DNA of 34,123 bases from Escherichia coli (GCF_003334385.1 NZ_QOWN01000047.1), one strand, 5' to 3'. Shown: positions 13,490-26,141, counted from the first letter of the stretch. Program-made: numbers and translations. The notes: a model not told the origin generated them from the letters alone.

Positions 13490-14263
13490 TCAGACGTCGA
13501 CTTTATCCAGCGGCCATGAATCAAACAGATAGCCGTCAAAATAAATATCGTCAACGTTCGAGAATTCCAGCAGACGTTGCTTAACGTTTTCCAGATGCTG
13601 CCACATTGCCAGCTTCGCCGCTCGGGCATCTTTTTTGATTAACGCGGCGAGGATCTGTTTGTGATCGCCCAACCACTCTTTGCGATACAGGCTGTCATCC
13701 AGATGGCTGTGCAACTGGATCCACATTGGATTGTTTTCCCGCCACTGCCAGGACTGACGGAATAACTCCACCAGCATGCTGTTATGCGTTGCTTCGGCAA
13801 TGGCGAGATGGAACTGCATATCACCGCTTTCGCTGCTACCCGGCGCGCTGGAAGCCAGTTCACGCTCTTCCAGTTGCAATGCCTGACGCATTTTGACGAT
13901 ATCTTCGCGGGTAGCCTGCAAAGCGGCAAATTCCGCGATGTTACTTTCCAGTAACTGACGCGCCTGTAACAGCTCAAAAGGACCCGCATCATTACAGACG
14001 TTGGCATCCGAACTGTCTGTGTTGTGGCTGCCTGAGCTATCAAGAACATAGATACCGGCACCCCGGCGCACTTCCACCAGCCCTTTGATCTCCAGCATGA
14101 TCAGCGCTTCACGTACCACCGTCCGCGTGACATCAAGCATTTCTGCAATTTCACGCTCCGGCGGCAGCCGTTCGCCAGGATTGTACGGCGTCTTTATGAT
14201 CAGATCGCGGATCATCGCCCCGACTTCCTGGTAAGGTCTTTGCGCAGAGGTGGCAGATTTCAT
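13490..14263 (-). CDS. uxuR: GntR/FadR-family repressor UxuR
   Basis: 257-aa ORF with N-terminal GntR HTH; adjacent to uxuB-uxuA. Confidence 0.9.
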   Translation of the reverse strand: MKSATSAQRPYQEVGAMIRDLIIKTPYNPGERLPPEREIAEMLDVTRTVVREALIMLEIKGLVEVRRGAGIYVLDSSGSHNTDSSDANVCNDAGPFELLQARQLLESNIAEFAALQATREDIVKMRQALQLEERELASSAPGSSESGDMQFHLAIAEATHNSMLVELFRQSWQWRENNPMWIQLHSHLDDSLYRKEWLGDHKQILAALIKKDARAAKLAMWQHLENVKQRLLEFSNVDDIYFDGYLFDSWPLDKVDV

Positions 14264-14300
14264 GGTGTTGTGTCCGTTAGGTGCGGTTAATCAAATTTTT

Positions 14301-14334
14301 GCCGGATGCGGCGTGAACGCCTTATCCGGCCTAC
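14301..14334. repeat. REP (repetitive extragenic palindromic) element
   Basis: GCCGGATGCGGCGTGAACGCCTTATCCGGCCTAC between uxuR and uxuB matches the enterobacterial REP consensus. Confidence 0.8.
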
Positions 14335-14477
14335 AACGGGCAATTTTACGGCCCCTGTTAATCTCAAACTATACCATTAGCACTGGAAGTTGGCACGTAC
14401 AGGTGGGCAAAAAAACGAAAACTGGTCAACCAAATATCAGTTTGATTGACCAGTAAGTCTGTAGGGTAATCAGTTAG

Positions 14478-15938
14478 TTACAGCGCAGCCACACACTCGC
14501 GCGCACCGCGTTCGCACAGCTGCTGATATGCCGCCGTCACCGCGCCAACAAAGTCGGCATTCTGCGGCAGATCATCGGCAAAAATACCGCTCAGGCCTAG
14601 CAGCGCTTTCACGCGGTCTGCGCCCTGATACTGCGCGTTAATCTTCTGGAACTCGGCCAGCATCGGGTCGACCACGTCAATGGCATTACCCTGCTCATCC
14701 ACGCCCTGGGTGTAACGCATCCAGCCAGCCACGCCCAGCGCCAGGTGACGCCAGCTGCCGCCGTTTTGCAGGTGCAGACGCACCGGGTCCAGCAGACGCT
14801 GCGGTAACTTCTGGCTGCCGTCCATCGCAATCTGCCAGGTACGGTGACGCAGAGACGGGTTGCTGAAACGCTCGATCAGCAGCGTCGCATAGGCGTTCAG
14901 GTCCGTACCTTCCGGCATCGACAGCGTTGGCGCTTGTTCCTGCATCATCAGGGCAAAGGCCGCTTTGCGATAATCCGGGTTAGTCATGGTGTCGGCAATA
15001 GTTTCATAGCCGCCGAGGTAACCGAGGTACGCCAGGAAAGAGTGGCTACCGTTCAGCATACGCAGCTTCATCATTTCGAACGGCACAACGTCTGCAACGA
15101 ACTGTGCGCCCACTTTATCCCAGTCCGGGCGACCATTAACGAAATTATCTTCAATCACCCACTGACGGAACGGTTCGCAGGCAATGGCGCACGGGTCGTA
15201 AACGCCCAGCTGGTCAGCAATTTCCTGTAAGGTTTCTGGCGTCGCCGCCGGAACGATGCGGTCAACCATGGTGCACGGGAAGGTGACGTTCTCTTCAATC
15301 CATGCCGCTAGCTGCGGGTCACGCGCCTGAGCCAGCCCCAGTACCGCGACCTTCGCCACATGACCGTTTTCACGCACGTTATCGCAGGACATCACCGTAA
15401 ATGCTTTCAGCCCTTTTTCACGACGCAGACGCAAGGCTTCGACGATGTAACCAATCGCGGACTTCGGCGCAGTCGGGTTTTCCAGATCGTGCTTGATCAG
15501 CGGGTTATTGAGATCCAGTTGACCGCTTGCCGCATCAGCGCAGTAGCCTTTTTCCGTGACCGTCAGAGAGACAATCGCCGTTTGCGGACGCGCCATCGCG
15601 TTGAGAATACCTTCGCAGCCGTCGATTTCCGGGTGCAGCGCTTCTTTCATCGAACCGATAATTTTCAGCTCGGTGCTTTCCGCGCCTTTTTCCGCCACGG
15701 TGTACAGCAGTTGCTGTTTTTTCAGGTTTTCGATCAGCACGCGGTCGTTGCCTGGCATCAGGTTAACTTCGCAGATACCCCAGTCGCTGTCGGTGCTTTC
15801 CAGCAGATGATGGGTGTACAGCGCCTGGTGCGCACGGTGAAACGCCCCGCAACCGAGATGCACAATGCGTGATTCCAGACGAGAATGATCCCATGACGGG
15901 CGGGCAACCGGCAGATTGCTGTCAACAATAGTAGTCAT
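14478..15938 (-). CDS. uxuB: D-mannonate oxidoreductase UxuB
   Basis: 486-aa ORF of the mannitol dehydrogenase family with a Rossmann N-terminus (IVHLGCGAFHRAHQ). Confidence 0.9.
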   Translation of the reverse strand: MTTIVDSNLPVARPSWDHSRLESRIVHLGCGAFHRAHQALYTHHLLESTDSDWGICEVNLMPGNDRVLIENLKKQQLLYTVAEKGAESTELKIIGSMKEALHPEIDGCEGILNAMARPQTAIVSLTVTEKGYCADAASGQLDLNNPLIKHDLENPTAPKSAIGYIVEALRLRREKGLKAFTVMSCDNVRENGHVAKVAVLGLAQARDPQLAAWIEENVTFPCTMVDRIVPAATPETLQEIADQLGVYDPCAIACEPFRQWVIEDNFVNGRPDWDKVGAQFVADVVPFEMMKLRMLNGSHSFLAYLGYLGGYETIADTMTNPDYRKAAFALMMQEQAPTLSMPEGTDLNAYATLLIERFSNPSLRHRTWQIAMDGSQKLPQRLLDPVRLHLQNGGSWRHLALGVAGWMRYTQGVDEQGNAIDVVDPMLAEFQKINAQYQGADRVKALLGLSGIFADDLPQNADFVGAVTAAYQQLCERGARECVAAL

Positions 15939-16018
15939 CGTAAACTCCAGAATCCGTCTTCAGAGAGTGACGGCAAGGAAGAAGGAACCGGCACGGCGCG
16001 CAGCCATGCCGGTGGATA

Positions 16019-17203
16019 TTAACGGCTAAAGAAAGCGCGCTGGATCGCCAGTTCGACACCGCGAACTTCGGCCAGGCCTTTCAGACGACCAATTGCGGAG
16101 TAACCTGGGTTGGTTTTCTTCTTCAGGTCGTCCAGCATCTGATGACCGTGGTCCGGACGCATCGGGATCAGGTCTTCTTTGCCTTCCGCTTTACGACGGT
16201 GTTCTTCTTCAACAATCGCTTTCACCACTTCGTACATATCAACGTCACCGTTCAGGTGCGCCGCTTCGTGGAAGGTTTTCGGGTTATCTTCACGCATGGT
16301 GGAGCGCAGATGGGTGAAGTAAATACGCGGACCGAACTGCTTGATCATATCAACCAGATCGTTGTCAGCACGCACGCCGTAGGAACCGGTGCACATGGTG
16401 AAACCGTTCGCCATGCTATTTACGGTATCAACCATCCACTGCATATCTTCAATGGTAGAAACAATGCGCGGCAGGCCGAGGATTGGGCGCGGCGGATCGT
16501 CCGGGTGAACAGCCATACGCACGCCAACTTCTTCGGCAACCGGAATAATCGCCTTCAGGAAGACGGCAAAGTTTTCGCGCAGTTTGGCTTTGTCGATATC
16601 TTTGTACAGCTCCAGGTGCTTACGGAACTGGTCGAGGGTGTACCCTTCTTCCGCGCCCGGCAGACCGGCAATGATGTTACGGGTCAGACGCGCTTTGTCT
16701 TCGTCGCTCATAGTGGCGAAGCGTTCAGCTGCCTGAGCAATTTCTTCTTCGGTGTAATCCGCTTCCGCACCTGGGCGTTTCAGGATATGCATTTCGAATG
16801 CAGCGAATTCGATCTGGTCGAAGCGCAGAGCTTTGGAGCCGTCTGGCAGCACGTATTCGAGGTCAGTACGGGTCCAGTCGAGCACCGGCATGAAGTTGTA
16901 GCACACGGTGCGAATACCGCACTGCGCCAGGTTGCGCAGAGTCTGCTGATAGTTAGCGATCCACTGCTCATAGTTGCCAGTGTGGGTTTTGATATCTTCG
17001 TGAATTGGCACGCTTTCTACGACAGACCACACCAGGCCTGCATCTTCAACGATAGCCTTGCGTTTGAGGATCTCTTCTACGGACCATACTTCACCGTTCG
17101 GGATATGGTGCAAAGCGGTAACCACGCCAGTCGCGCCCGCCTGACGGACATCAGCTAAAGAAACCGGATCGTTTGGGCCGTACCAGCGCCAGGTCTGTTC
17201 CAT
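16019..17203 (-). CDS. uxuA: D-mannonate dehydratase UxuA
   Basis: ORF 16019-17239; start taken at the in-frame ATG ([14 protein letters not shown]...) giving 394 aa. Confidence 0.9.
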
Positions 17204-17365
17204 GATTTTTCCTCTTTCACATAGTGGGTTCCACAGCAAAGAGACGCGGAACCCTGGAGTTGTTTAGGTATCCGGATGAACAACCAGACCGCAGCCGTGG
17301 CGTTGCATCGGATGAGATGGCGTATAAGTTCTACCTTTTGGTAAGACATGTCAACCCGAATTCTG

Positions 17366-17383
17366 AAATTGGTTAACCACATC
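17366..17383. promoter_or_regulatory. Candidate UxuR/ExuR operator (palindrome AAATTGGTTAACCAC)
   Basis: Perfect 10-bp palindrome TGGTTAACCA flanked by AAAT, in the divergent uxuA-gntP region; resembles the TGGT-N-ACCA type operator. Confidence 0.55.
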
Positions 17384-17473
17384 ACAAGAATTTCACTCTC
17401 CTGGTTGTTGCTGCAAATTGCAGCAAAAGGTAATCGATGGTTATTGATCAGAGGATGTGACATTCATCGCAAC

Positions 17474-17488
17474 AATGGTTGACCAATT
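17474..17488. promoter_or_regulatory. Second candidate UxuR/ExuR operator (AATGGTTGACCAATT)
   Basis: Inverted half-sites TGGT/ACCA about 55 bp upstream of the gntP start codon. Confidence 0.45.
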
Positions 17489-17542
17489 TACATAACATGT
17501 CGCCCAAAATAACAACGGTTCAACCAGGTAAGGTAAAACGTT

Positions 17543-18886
17543 ATGCATGTGCTTAACATTCTCTGGGTGGTATTCGGCATTGGTCTGATGCTGGTACTGA
17601 ATTTGAAGTTCAAAATCAATTCAATGGTGGCCTTGTTGGTGGCGGCGCTGTCCGTCGGGATGCTGGCGGGCATGGATTTGATGTCGCTGCTGCACACCAT
17701 GAAAGCGGGCTTCGGCAACACACTGGGGGAACTGGCTATCATCGTGGTGTTCGGTGCGGTCATCGGTAAATTGATGGTCGACTCCGGCGCGGCTCACCAG
17801 ATAGCGCATACGCTGCTGGCACGTCTCGGTCTGCGTTATGTACAGCTGTCGGTGATTATCATCGGCCTGATTTTCGGTCTGGCGATGTTCTATGAAGTGG
17901 CCTTTATCATGTTAGCACCGCTGGTTATTGTTATTGCCGCCGAAGCTAAAATTCCGTTCCTGAAACTGGCGATCCCGGCAGTAGCAGCTGCCACTACCGC
18001 ACATTCACTGTTCCCACCGCAGCCGGGTCCGGTGGCGCTGGTGAATGCTTATGGCGCGGATATGGGGATGGTTTATATCTATGGCGTACTGGTGACGATC
18101 CCAAGTGTCATCTGCGCAGGTCTGATCCTGCCGAAGTTCCTCGGCAATCTTGAGCGCCCAACGCCATCATTCCTGAAAGCAGATCAACCGGTAGATATGA
18201 ATAATCTGCCCTCTTTCGGCGTTTCGATTCTGGTGCCGTTGATCCCGGCGATCATTATGATCTCTACCACCATCGCCAATATCTGGCTGGTAAAAGATAC
18301 CCCTGCGTGGGAAGTGGTTAACTTTATCGGTTCCTCGCCGATTGCAATGTTTATTGCGATGGTGGTTGCATTCGTACTCTTTGGCACCGCGCGCGGGCAC
18401 GATATGCAGTGGGTAATGAACGCTTTTGAAAGCGCGGTGAAAAGCATTGCAATGGTGATTCTGATCATCGGTGCAGGTGGCGTGCTGAAGCAGACCATCA
18501 TCGACACCGGCATCGGCGACACCATCGGCATGCTGATGTCCCACGGCAATATCTCGCCCTACATCATGGCATGGCTGATCACCGTACTGATTCGTCTGGC
18601 GACGGGTCAGGGTGTGGTTTCAGCGATGACCGCCGCCGGGATTATCAGTGCAGCAATCCTTGATCCAGCAACTGGTCAGCTGGTTGGCGTGAATCCGGCG
18701 CTGCTAGTACTGGCGACGGCTGCGGGTTCCAACACCCTCACCCACATTAACGATGCCTCATTCTGGTTGTTCAAAGGTTACTTTGACCTGTCAGTAAAAG
18801 ACACGTTGAAAACCTGGGGTCTGCTGGAGCTGGTCAACTCCGTGGTTGGGCTGATTATTGTGCTGATTATTAGCATGGTAGCGTAA
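17543..18886 (+). CDS. gntP: GntP-family permease (fructuronate/gluconate transporter)
   Basis: 447-aa polytopic ORF of the GntP permease family, divergent from uxuA. Confidence 0.9.
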
Positions 18887-18896
18887 AAGAGCACCT

Positions 18897-18917
18897 GAGC
18901 CTGCCATTGGCAGGCTC
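18897..18917 (+). terminator. Hairpin immediately downstream of gntP (possible terminator)
   Basis: GAGCCTGCC-ATT-GGCAGGCTC stem-loop 11 bp after the gntP stop, followed by TGTT; weak U-tract. Confidence 0.45.
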
Positions 18918-18950
18918 TGTTCGGATTGTCGGTAAAGTGCGCTTTGTTTA

Positions 18951-18987
18951 TGCCAGATGCGACGCTGACGCGTCTTATCTGGCCTAC
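18951..18987. repeat. REP element (variant)
   Basis: TGCCAGATGCGACGCTGACGCGTCTTATCTGGCCTAC in the convergent gntP/fimH intergenic region. Confidence 0.7.
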
Positions 18988-19058
18988 AAAGGGCTAACGT
19001 GCAGGTTTTAGCTTCAGGTAATATTGCGTACCTGCATTAGCAATGCCCTGTGATTTCT

Positions 19059-19961
19059 TTATTGATAAACAAAAGTCACGGCAATAATCGATTGCACATT
19101 CCCTGCAGTCACCTGCCCTCCGGTACGTGCGTAATTTGCCGTTAATCCCAGACTTACCGCCGAAGTCCCTACTGCTCCTAACGATACCGTGTTATTCGCT
19201 GGAATAATCGTACCGTTGCGCGTCAACTGTACGCCGACGCCCTGTGCAGGTGAAAACGACGCGGTATTGGTGAAAATCGAGTTGCCCGCATCTGCGGTTG
19301 TGCCGGAGAGGTAATACCCCAGGTTTTGGCTTTTCGCACAATAAACGGTAAGAGGAATCGGCACTGAACCAGGGTAGTCCGGCAGAGTAACGGTGACATC
19401 ACGAGCAGAAACATCGCAGCCGCCAGTGGGCACCACCACATCATTATTGGCGTAAATATTCCACACAAACTGGAAATCATCGCTGTTATAGTTGTTGGTC
19501 TGTCGCAAAATAAGCACGGCAATTAATGAGCCAGCTTTAATCACCACCCCGCCCGCACTGCTCACAGGCGTCAAATAAAGCGCCACCGGCCACGGCTTAT
19601 CCGTTCTCGAATTATAAACAACCCGCGGCGTTTCACTGGTGGTCGGAAATGGATAGCTACTGCCACTATATTTTACGGTCCCGGAAAAATTAGATAACAC
19701 GCCGCCATAAGCCGAGCCTCGTTGCAGTGTGACATAATCTGTAATGGTTTCCGGGTAATCGTTATGGCAAAAGATTTGCGTCGAAAGATCCACGACCAGG
19801 TTTTGCCCCACATTCACGGCGGGCGCAAGGTTTACATAAACATTGGCGCTGCCACCGCCAATAGGGATAGCGGTGCCATTGGCGGTTTTACAGGCGAATG
19901 ACCAGGCATTTACCGACCAGCCCATCAGCAGTACAGCAAACAGGTTAATAACTCGTTTCAT
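19059..19961 (-). CDS. fimH: Type 1 fimbrial adhesin FimH (mannose-binding)
   Basis: ORF 19059-19970; start at MKRVI... gives 300 aa; mature N-terminus FACKTANGTAIPIGGGSANVYVNLAP recognised as FimH. Confidence 0.95.
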   Translation of the reverse strand: MKRVINLFAVLLMGWSVNAWSFACKTANGTAIPIGGGSANVYVNLAPAVNVGQNLVVDLSTQIFCHNDYPETITDYVTLQRGSAYGGVLSNFSGTVKYSGSSYPFPTTSETPRVVYNSRTDKPWPVALYLTPVSSAGGVVIKAGSLIAVLILRQTNNYNSDDFQFVWNIYANNDVVVPTGGCDVSARDVTVTLPDYPGSVPIPLTVYCAKSQNLGYYLSGTTADAGNSIFTNTASFSPAQGVGVQLTRNGTIIPANNTVSLGAVGTSAVSLGLTANYARTGGQVTAGNVQSIIAVTFVYQ

Positions 19962-19980
19962 TACAATCATCTCTTCGGCT

Positions 19981-25660: not shown

Positions 25661-25779
25661 ACTGCTTTCCTTTCAAAAAACTATTTCTAAATCGACATGG
25701 GCAGTCGTTCCGTACACTTTGTTTTGTCAACGAGTTTGACTGCCAACACTGCACAGTTTCCCCCCAAAAGATGAAACAT

Positions 25780-26094
25780 TTGGGGCCAAAACTGTCCATA
25801 TCATAAATAAGTTACGTATTTTTTCTCAAGCATAAAAATATTATAAAACGACAAAAAGCATCTAACTGTTTGATATGTAAATCATTTCTCTTGTAAATTA
25901 ATTTCACATCACCTCCGCTAAATGTAAAGCTAACGTTTCTGTGTCTCGAAGCAACTTCCTCATTCTTCTCTCCAAAAACCACCTCATGCAATATAAAAAT
26001 CTATAAATAAAGATAACAATAGAATATAAAGCCAACAAATAAACTGAAAAAGTTTGTGCGCGATGCTTTCCTCTATGAGTCAAAATGGCCCCAA
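25780..26094. mobile_element. fimS: fimS invertible phase-variation switch (about 314 bp) bounded by 9-bp inverted repeats
   Basis: TTGGGGCCA at about 25780-25788 and its inverse TGGCCCCAA at about 26086-26094 flank an AT-rich segment between fimA and fimE, matching the known fim switch architecture. Confidence 0.85.
25799..25829 (-). promoter_or_regulatory. Candidate fimA sigma70 promoter inside fimS, reading toward fimA (switch ON)
   Basis: On the minus strand, TTGAGA (about 25829-25824), an 18-bp spacer and TATGAT (about 25805-25800) lie just inside the fimA-proximal inverted repeat and point at fimA. Confidence 0.6.
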
Positions 26095-26141
26095 TTGTCT
26101 TGTATTTATTTGTTTTTTACCTTTACTATCAATAAGTTAAA

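Follow-up and report, generated by a model that had tools for sequence, protein, structure and literature searches.

Two Solitary REP Elements at the uxuR–uxuB and gntP–fimH Spacers of Escherichia coli as Relics of Inverted REP Pairs

The stretch of Escherichia coli DNA analyzed here (34,123 nt in full, hereafter the window) covers the yji–uxuRBA–gntP–fim region and contains exactly two REP elements, as judged by a composite sequence pattern applied to all 34 kb: REP1 in the spacer between uxuR and uxuB, and REP2 in the spacer between gntP and fimH. The best overall explanation, to which we assign a probability of about 0.8, is that both are solitary relics of BIMEs (REP pairs), with candidate roles suggested by their positions. 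In kind, the two elements are nothing new: They are ordinary solitary REPs and belong to an already known class. The genes and sequence features on which the analysis rests are the following, with the type of evidence in parentheses.

13490-14263, minus strand: uxuR
14301-14334, minus strand: REP1, a solitary y-type REP reading GTAGGCCGGATAAGGCGTTCACGCCGCATCCGGC (pattern match, inverted repeat, fold)
14337-14349, minus strand: GTAAAATTGCCCG, the distal arm left over from an inverted z2-like partner REP that has been lost (cross-species alignment)
14368-14396, minus strand: predicted promoter-like site for uxuR with -35 GTGCCA, 17-nt spacer and extended -10 TGgTATAGT (consensus scan)
14408-14454, minus strand: terminator-like hairpin directly after uxuB, with a 14-bp stem (14454-14421) followed by TTTTCGTTTTTTT (terminator scan)
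14478-15938, minus strand: uxuB
16019-17203, minus strand: uxuA
17543-18886, plus strand: gntP
18897-18917, plus strand: GC-rich hairpin 11 nt after the gntP stop, GAGCCTGCCA T TGGCAGGCTC (inverted repeat, fold -17.9 kcal/mol)
18952-18987, minus strand: REP2, a solitary z1-variant REP reading GTAGGCCAGATAAGACGCGTCAGCGTCGCATCTGGC (pattern match, inverted repeat, fold)
19010-19034, plus strand: decayed z2 partner remnant AGCTTCAGGTAATATTGCGTACC, which in the window allele has lost the GTAG head and the 5' arm
19059-19970, minus strand: fimH

Identity and abundance of the two REPs

REPs have been known in E. coli since 1984. The original prediction had placed canonical REP palindromes between uxuR and uxuB and between gntP and fimH, and both are indeed present at these borders, with the genes correctly named. 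A consensus scan with the full composite pattern GTAGGCCNGATAAG-N(8-18)-GCATCNGGC matched these two sites and no other in the 34-kb window, against an expectation of 0.00 matches derived from 100 dinucleotide shuffles. The 14-nt REP head alone recovered the same two sites only, and short-word BLAST with y, z1 and z2 queries detected no further REP copy in the window. The designation as canonical is likewise justified, as both REPs satisfy every sequence criterion examined. REP1 (34 nt) and REP2 (36 nt) are imperfect palindromes with inverted arms, and both are extragenic, located in spacers between annotated genes. The GTAG head abuts the stem foot and occupies minus-strand positions 14334-14331 in REP1 and 18987-18984 in REP2. 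In both predicted structures an AA/GC internal loop separates the outer from the inner stem: REP1 combines a 7-bp outer stem, the AA/GC mismatch, a 4-bp inner stem and a TTCA loop, while REP2 combines the outer stem GCCAGAT/ATCTGGC, the AA/GC mismatch, a 5-bp inner stem and a GTCA loop. A T:A to A:T swap in the outer stem of REP2 is compensated on both sides and keeps the pairing. GTAG and the stem mismatch are required for binding by TnpA_REP (PMC3333891). The predicted folding energies are -20.9 kcal/mol for REP1 (z = -3.8) and -21.9 kcal/mol for REP2 (z = -6.3); across the RNAs from either strand of both elements they range from -20.9 to -21.9 kcal/mol (z = -3.8 to -6.8), and 0 shuffles were equally stable. 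The hairpins also remain when the entire leader or spacer is folded.

Both elements are, moreover, members of a large family. A REP1-containing query matched a median of at least 37 places per genome (at least 40 in 2281 records), and a sensitive search with a REP2 query gave a median of at least 40 (at least 40 in 5013 records), so that most of the 5426 genomes contain at least 40 related copies each, nearly all of these copies chromosomal. This bears out the earlier description of the elements as ordinary for this type of genome. Near-exact copies of REP2 are few, as megablast with a 471-bp query spanning it yielded a median of 3 places per genome. It can practically be dismissed that the two are chance palindromes or ordinary intrinsic terminators outside any repeat family: Such an origin would fit two GC-rich stem-loops situated in spacers beside gene ends, but it is contradicted by the chance expectation of 0.00 for the REP pattern, by the at least 40 related copies per genome, and by the absence of a T-run after either stem (AAAAATTT / CTACAACG for REP1, ATAAACAA / CTACAAAG for REP2), neither REP having been called by an intrinsic terminator scan of both strands. 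Rfam, searched with the complete window at gathering thresholds, gave no match, which is neutral with regard to REP identity, and the RefSeq record of K-12 has no REP features annotated; y and z1 copies were listed from 50 kb of K-12. The window contains no rayT, which is present in K-12 and in 3575 of the 5426 genomes, including strain 300709. Solitary REPs are the minority state in K-12 (84 of 584; PMC3333891).

The two palindromes had also been taken to confirm a core-chromosome context. This context is borne out, the stronger evidence being synteny across complete E. coli genomes: At a coverage of at least 80%, the uxuR–uxuB spacer is found in 5405 and the gntP–fimH spacer in 5344 of 5426 complete E. 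coli genomes. In strain 300709 the uxu–fimH region is 100% identical to the window, and 4674 E. coli records carry a uxuR–uxuB spacer at least 99% identical to it.

Origin from inverted REP pairs

Comparison with related genomes establishes, at the level of sequence, that both REPs are the surviving halves of inverted REP pairs, a relic status that the original prediction had overlooked. For the uxuR site, a scan of genome contigs with a degenerate uxuR pattern recovered 8 species, which covered Escherichia and the K. oxytoca group, with no Salmonella, Citrobacter or E. fergusonii among them. E. albertii, E. whittamii and Escherichia sp. MOD1-EC7003 carry a full z2-L-y pair at this site, which can be aligned over its full length with a BIME between fliC and fliA of E. 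coli and constitutes a repeated module with a median of 8 places per genome. In E. coli, 55 bp comprising the rest of the z2 partner and the long L linker are absent between the remnant arm and REP1; Escherichia sp. E1V33 shares this state, in that the 55 bp are absent and the distal arm of the partner is retained. Depending on the species, the uxuR leader holds a REP pair, a single REP or a degenerate head. At the gntP–fimH site, where MOD1-EC7003 was aligned with E. albertii and E. coli strains, E. albertii has both REPs, with an intact partner (GTAGGCCTGATAAGCGTTGCGCATCAGGC). The alleles of E. coli differ in how the z2 partner is truncated, and strains EC01 and 10034292-3 have kept the head of the REP2 partner. 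Within the window neither element forms a BIME: Each REP stands alone, accompanied by partner fragments only (14337-14349 and ~19010-19034). Complete BIMEs occur in E. albertii at both sites and in E. whittamii at the uxuR site only.

REPs, short imperfect palindromes carrying GTAG on their 5' side, are recognized, and presumably spread, by the tyrosine transposase RayT/TnpA_REP. According to the preferred explanation, BIMEs would have entered both spacers in an ancestor of Escherichia and then been eroded by small deletions. That the direction of change was deletion in E. coli, as opposed to gain elsewhere, is suggested by the partner fragments and by five or six species rather than by a dated tree. 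Read in this way, both loci would represent clean cases of decay from a BIME to a solitary REP, and sister species as well as strains of E. coli would still carry the intermediates. RayT was also considered as the agent of the 55-bp deletion: The right end (C|T) fits linker cleavage, the left end (CCCG|AT) does not, and we make no claim in this respect.

A mobile uxuBA–gntP unit bounded by the two REPs, which lie in direct orientation, was rejected on two grounds, the existence of a uxuA-uxuB-uxuR arrangement in Klebsiella without any REP and the separate BIME histories of REP1 and REP2. The span 14301-18987 merely extends from REP1 to REP2, and there is no functional tie between the two elements.

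Positions and candidate roles

Any effect of the REPs on the host would, judging by their position, arise from a hairpin of ~-21 kcal/mol that forms upon transcription. For REP1, the surroundings point to a specific transcript: It lies 143 nt beyond the uxuB stop and 37 nt before the uxuR ATG, downstream of both a terminator-like hairpin and a conserved promoter-like site, and for this reason most likely belongs to the uxuR 5' leader, not to the end of the uxuB message. The terminator-like hairpin (fold -18.8 kcal/mol, z = -5.7) has conserved arms and a variable loop across Escherichia and Klebsiella, and each of its arms resembles a UxuR/ExuR operator half-site (consensus from PMC8092373). 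The promoter-like site is the only minus-strand site in the spacer according to the consensus scan, and both of its hexamers are kept in five Escherichia and three Klebsiella species, whereas the flanks diverge. On the basis of this predicted promoter, with a match to 9 of 12 consensus positions and its conservation, the placement in the leader is probably correct, and REP1 would extend from about +27 to +60 relative to the predicted uxuR start. The same stretch would also be the uxuB–uxuR spacer of any uxuABR read-through transcript. In the Klebsiella oxytoca group the same hairpin and promoter-like site are followed by a short leader without a REP; since the architecture is the same there, REP1 appears unnecessary for uxuAB expression. 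The element would be clear of the ribosome-binding region and probably near-neutral, and at most it may, once read-through RNA has been processed, protect the uxuAB portion, as it could protect uxuAB only on read-through transcripts. Its assignment to the leader is relevant for the design of uxuR promoter and leader constructs.

REP2, on the other hand, is flanked by two convergent genes. It is situated 65 nt past the gntP stop and 71 nt past the fimH stop, in a spacer for which the terminator scan called no canonical intrinsic terminator. The GC-rich hairpin close to the gntP stop has a poor U tract and was not called by the scan either, and is consequently no canonical terminator. REP stem-loops stop exonucleases, and many Rho-dependent transcripts end at such structures (PMC6061677; PMC12306157). 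The original prediction had suggested that the REPs may stabilise upstream transcripts; from position, this is plausible for REP2 only, within the shared 3' region of the convergent genes. There, REP2 would most likely act as a barrier to 3'-to-5' exonucleases and in this way both define and protect the 3' ends of two RNAs, the fim (…fimH) message and gntP read-through. The spacer itself is polymorphic as regards a boxC-like insert and the partner REP, of which there are several alleles, and this would make it usable as a lineage marker beside the widely typed fimH; in K-12, a 69-bp insert directly follows the gntP 3' hairpin.

In its broader form, in which the REPs function mainly as 3' stabilisers, REP1 for uxuAB and REP2 for gntP, the suggestion is doubtful, albeit not without appeal. 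REPs at 3' ends or between cistrons stabilise upstream RNA (PMC12306157; PMC6061677), both hairpins are stable on either strand, and Shimada et al. treat the locus as uxuABR, which makes read-through from uxuB into REP1 plausible. However, the distance of REP1 from the uxuB stop, its location behind a 14-bp hairpin with a T-run and the conserved promoter-like site, and the identical architecture of Klebsiella without a REP argue against such a function for uxuAB, and in the case of gntP another hairpin intervenes between the stop codon and REP2. For translation coupling, Liang et al. in 2015 reportedly arrived at a REP-to-stop distance of ~15 nt. Neither element lies this close to a stop codon, the distances being 143 nt (uxuB), 71 nt (fimH) and 65 nt (gntP). 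REPs of this translation-coupled type, which act by ribosome stalling near the stop codon, are mentioned in PMC12306157. The literature search found no usable transcription start or 3'-end data for uxuR, uxuB, gntP and fimH: The Cappable-seq files examined have no coordinate within range, the tables of Adams 2021 contain, for the target genes, an antisense site in gntP only, and Tutukina 2023 gives promoters at the uxuR 3' end only.

We also asked whether its leader position could have made REP1 a cis-regulator of uxuR that tunes mRNA stability or translation, or attenuates uxuAB read-through, with autoregulation in Escherichia unlike that in Klebsiella. A REP or BIME does lie between the conserved promoter-like site and the uxuR ATG in 5 of 5 Escherichia genomes, and the near-identity of the spacer in 4674 E. 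coli records would be in line with such a function; we nevertheless regard it as unlikely, because spacer identity does not exceed that of the flanks and the variation between species is that expected of a decaying repeat. Furthermore, 37 nt separate the hairpin from the ATG, the ribosome-binding region is free of pairing in the centroid fold, and at ~27 nt from the predicted 5' end the hairpin provides no 5'-terminal protective stem. The whole uxuR leader folds no more stably than shuffled sequences (z = -1.2) and gives no sign of a larger evolved structure. The corresponding evolutionary scenario is quite improbable: A BIME would have inserted into the short conserved uxuR leader of early Escherichia, and the surviving y REP would set the UxuR level via mRNA stability or read-through attenuation. 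If this were true, hexuronate autoregulation would be wired differently in Escherichia and Klebsiella.

Finally, the REPs might act not as RNA hairpins but at the level of the DNA, where they would bind gyrase, IHF or Pol I or insulate supercoils between convergent or tandem transcription units. Binding of IHF, Pol I and gyrase as well as insulation of supercoiling have been reported for REPs and BIMEs (PMC3333891), and REP2 is positioned between convergent genes, where positive supercoils accumulate. These activities are, however, credited mainly to BIME pairs and the L linker, and E. coli has neither the L linker nor the partner at the uxuR site and only a truncated partner at the fimH site, which leaves little likelihood for an action of this kind.

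Comparison with known systems

REP1 corresponds to the y-type REP (palindromic unit Y), with which it shares GTAG, the outer stem GCCGGAT/ATCCGGC, the AA/GC mismatch and the inner stem GGCG/CGCC. It matches 30 of 32 bases of the y REP co-crystallised with TnpA_REP/RayT (REPtron copy; PMC3479197) and differs from K-12 y copies at one loop base only. What sets it apart from this type is its solitary state outside a BIME and its location in a probable 5' leader instead of a 3' UTR or an intercistronic spacer. REP2 is of the z1 type: GTAG and AA/GC are shared, and its inner stem and loop GACGCGTCAGCGTCGC are identical to those of the K-12 copy at yafJ, whereas its outer stem reads GCCAGAT/ATCTGGC compared with GC(C/A)TGAT/ATCAGGC in the sampled K-12 copies.

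The ancestral arrangement at the uxuR site resembles the BIME-1 or RIP/RIB type, in which a long L linker carries an IHF site: The uxuR leaders of E. albertii, E. whittamii and MOD1-EC7003 consist of an inverted z2-like REP, a 33-nt L-like linker and a y REP. In comparison with a BIME containing the long L, the window has lost the linker and keeps only the y half and 13 nt of the partner. As BIME-1 is defined with z1 (PMC3333891) and the partner at the uxuR site is z2-like, even the ancestral form would be atypical. With regard to the REP stabilisers of the malE–malF type and the stem-loops at Rho-dependent ends, REP1 differs in that it is not located at a 3' end. REP2 is a stable stem-loop, lies 65-71 nt past two convergent stops and has no canonical terminator nearby, a likeness that is one of sequence and position only.

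REP1 and REP2 in the region from uxuR to fimH

The original prediction had placed canonical REP elements between uxuR and uxuB and between gntP and fimH, and pattern, palindrome and fold searches located both with exactly the borders it had given.

Features of the region from uxuR to fimH
13490-14263, minus strand: uxuR
14301-14334: REP1, GTAG-headed imperfect palindrome on the minus strand; plus-strand reading GCCGGATGCGGCGTGAACGCCTTATCCGGCCTAC
14396-14368, minus strand: promoter-like site (GTGCCA, 17 nt, TGgTATAGT), the sole minus-strand one in its spacer
14478-15938, minus strand: uxuB
16019-17203, minus strand: uxuA
17543-18886, plus strand: gntP
18952-18987: REP2, GTAG-headed imperfect palindrome on the minus strand; plus-strand reading GCCAGATGCGACGCTGACGCGTCTTATCTGGCCTAC
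19059-19970, minus strand: fimH

The head motif GTAGGCCNGATAAG has two sites in 34 kb, in REP1 and REP2 only, and the full head-gap-tail pattern matches twice in the window versus 0.00 expected from shuffles. Inverted arms are found in both elements, each of which folds on either strand into a hairpin whose two stems are separated by an internal AA/GC mismatch (-20.9 to -21.9 kcal/mol); 0/200 shuffles folded as well. These pattern, inverted-arm and fold results establish the exact coordinates and set the features far beyond chance. Searched by short-word BLAST for y, z1 and z2 sequences, the window gave no further match longer than 11 nt.

By megablast, 13400-19200 with its annotated genes uxuR, uxuB, uxuA, gntP and fimH is matched by 5426/5426 complete E. 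coli genomes, by several at 100% identity; the window is oriented as the reverse complement of K-12 MG1655. Strain SCU-104 is 99.85-99.97% identical to the window from mdtM to past nanM. The invertible switch fimS (25776-26098, bounds TTGGGGCCA and TGGCCCCAA) is inverted relative to both MG1655 and SCU-104, with collinear flanks; the MG1655 reference being phase-OFF, the window may be phase-ON.

Spacer architecture and traces of former REP pairs

Read in the sense direction (minus strand), the uxuB-uxuR spacer opens with a 14-bp hairpin (14454-14421; -18.8 kcal/mol) 23 nt past the uxuB stop, which is followed by TTTTCGTTTTTTT and is the only terminator-like site called. Both arms, TTTGGTTGACCAG and TTTGATTGACCAG, are similar to the consensus for UxuR operators, AAATTGGTATACCAATTT (PMC8092373); the site (14408-14454, minus strand) comprises two inverted UxuR/ExuR-box-like half-sites and may do double duty as uxuAB terminator and uxuR operator. 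Past the promoter-like site follow a 13-nt fragment GTAAAATTGCCCG, REP1, 37 nt and the uxuR ATG. A cross-species scan with a degenerate uxuR pattern, one genome per species, returned eight loci, four from Escherichia and four from the Klebsiella oxytoca group. The arms of the hairpin and the two promoter hexamers are conserved at all Escherichia loci and at the Klebsiella loci too, while the hairpin loop is not conserved between the genera. The Klebsiella leader past the -10 hexamer measures only ~30 nt and lacks a REP, which, together with the conserved site, identifies the REP as part of an Escherichia-specific insertion before the uxuR start codon. REP1 would accordingly be placed within the uxuR 5' leader, downstream of the conserved promoter-like site. 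The lone K-12 difference in the 231-bp alignment of this spacer, a plus-strand T versus C at 14356, adjoins the partner-REP remnant on its upstream side, within the predicted leader.

The same site is occupied in E. albertii, E. whittamii and Escherichia sp. MOD1-EC7003 by a z2-like REP in inverted orientation that a 33-nt linker (…ATCAATCGCAATTTATTGAATACGCACTCTT) joins to the y REP; 55 bp of this unit are missing from E. coli and Escherichia sp. E1V33, the partner's distal arm being kept. This pair with its linker is a dispersed module in E. coli (median 8 places per genome), and the uxuR-site pair aligns end to end with the z2-L-y BIME (an inverted REP pair with long linker, L) between fliC and fliA. 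To judge from these alignments, REP1 once made up one half of a BIME, and the retained partner fragment argues for a deletion in the E. coli line rather than a gain elsewhere.

In the gntP-fimH spacer, a GC hairpin with a poor U tract (18897-18917) lies past the gntP end (18886), and REP2 is situated 65 nt past the gntP stop and 71 nt past the fimH stop; scans of both strands of this spacer called neither a canonical terminator nor a promoter. In whole-spacer folds of either strand the REP2 hairpin persists, lengthened by flanking CTTTG/CAAAG pairing. In E. albertii a linker of 22 nt separates a degenerate inverted z1 REP from an intact z2 (GTAGGCCTGATAAGCGTTGCGCATCAGGC), and the MOD1-EC7003 spacer holds z2 alone; E. 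coli EC01 and 10034292-3 have z2 with its head and a truncated tail, and in the window, K-12 and Nissle a headless z2 tail alone is left. By this comparison, REP2 too once had a partner. The window-type partner allele occurs in at least 2187 genomes and the head-bearing allele in at least 517 (megablast).

A GC-rich palindrome of 69 bp (…CCCCTCGCCCCTCCGGGGAGAGGGTTAGGGTGAGGGG…) is inserted between the gntP hairpin and REP2 in K-12, O26 RM10386 and EC01 and is absent from the window, Nissle and 10034292-3 (window 18918-18930 versus 2212-2453 of the K-12 locus L001). It is a dispersed repeat (median 16 places per genome) and resembles boxC. O26-type strains keep the spacer, REP2 and fimH; of gntP they retain only the final 93 nt, which the annotation lists as an incomplete pseudogene (RM10386 locus L003, 1501-1593). 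Beside gntP in E. albertii (locus L007, 3837-4301), FimH aligns over 155/303 residues only, which suggests a degraded fim cluster.

Possible roles in the transcripts

REP2 would be the stablest structure downstream of two convergent genes without canonical terminators, and the fim polycistronic RNA would contain it in the GTAG sense. This arrangement fits the published model, in which transcription stops further on, often through the action of Rho, and the RNA is then shortened by exonucleases as far as the REP stem (PMC6061677). REP1 is probably near-neutral, since in the modeled centroid fold it and the ribosome-binding region are unpaired with each other and the full uxuR leader shows no unusual degree of structure (z = -1.2); secondarily, it may act as a 3' barrier once uxuAB read-through RNA has been processed. 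The remark that the REPs may stabilise upstream transcripts is only partly apt. DNA-level roles of REP1 and REP2 involving IHF or gyrase are less likely now that L linker and partners have been lost. A translation-coupled REP mechanism is excluded, as the REP-to-stop distances are too long.

Copy number and REP family membership

REPs are described as extragenic, multicopy imperfect palindromes of 30-40 nt with GTAG 5' of the stem foot; they fall into the three classes y, z1 and z2, and a stem mismatch is needed for binding by TnpA_REP (RayT) (PMC3333891, PMC12306157). Rfam at gathering thresholds returned no match. A 541-bp query holding REP1 matched a median of 37 places per genome (at least 40 in 2281 records), and REP2 alone, in a sensitive search, at least 40 (at least 40 in 5013 records), chromosomal almost throughout. 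Many REPs occur in 5426/5426 E. coli genomes, though megablast found rayT (K-12 locus L006:47637-48134) in 3575/5426 only, in one or two copies each; strain 300709, whose region is identical to the window, has it. Both REP1 and REP2 are solitary, a minority state among K-12 REPs (84/584; PMC3333891). They belong to the multicopy RayT-type REPs and are what is left of former pairs; such elements are already known, and neither is new in kind.

Comparison with REPs from a 50-kb K-12 sample that includes rayT bears out their canonical identity. There, y copies read GTAGGCCGGATAAGGCGTT(T/C)ACGCCGCATCCGGCA and z1 copies GTAGGCATGATAAGACGCG(C/T)CAGCGTCGCATCAGGCA. By its sequence REP1 is a y REP, sharing 30/32 bases with the one crystallised with TnpA_REP (PMC3479197), whereas REP2 shares the z1 core and differs in its outer stem GCCAGAT/ATCTGGC, a two-sided swap that keeps the pairing.
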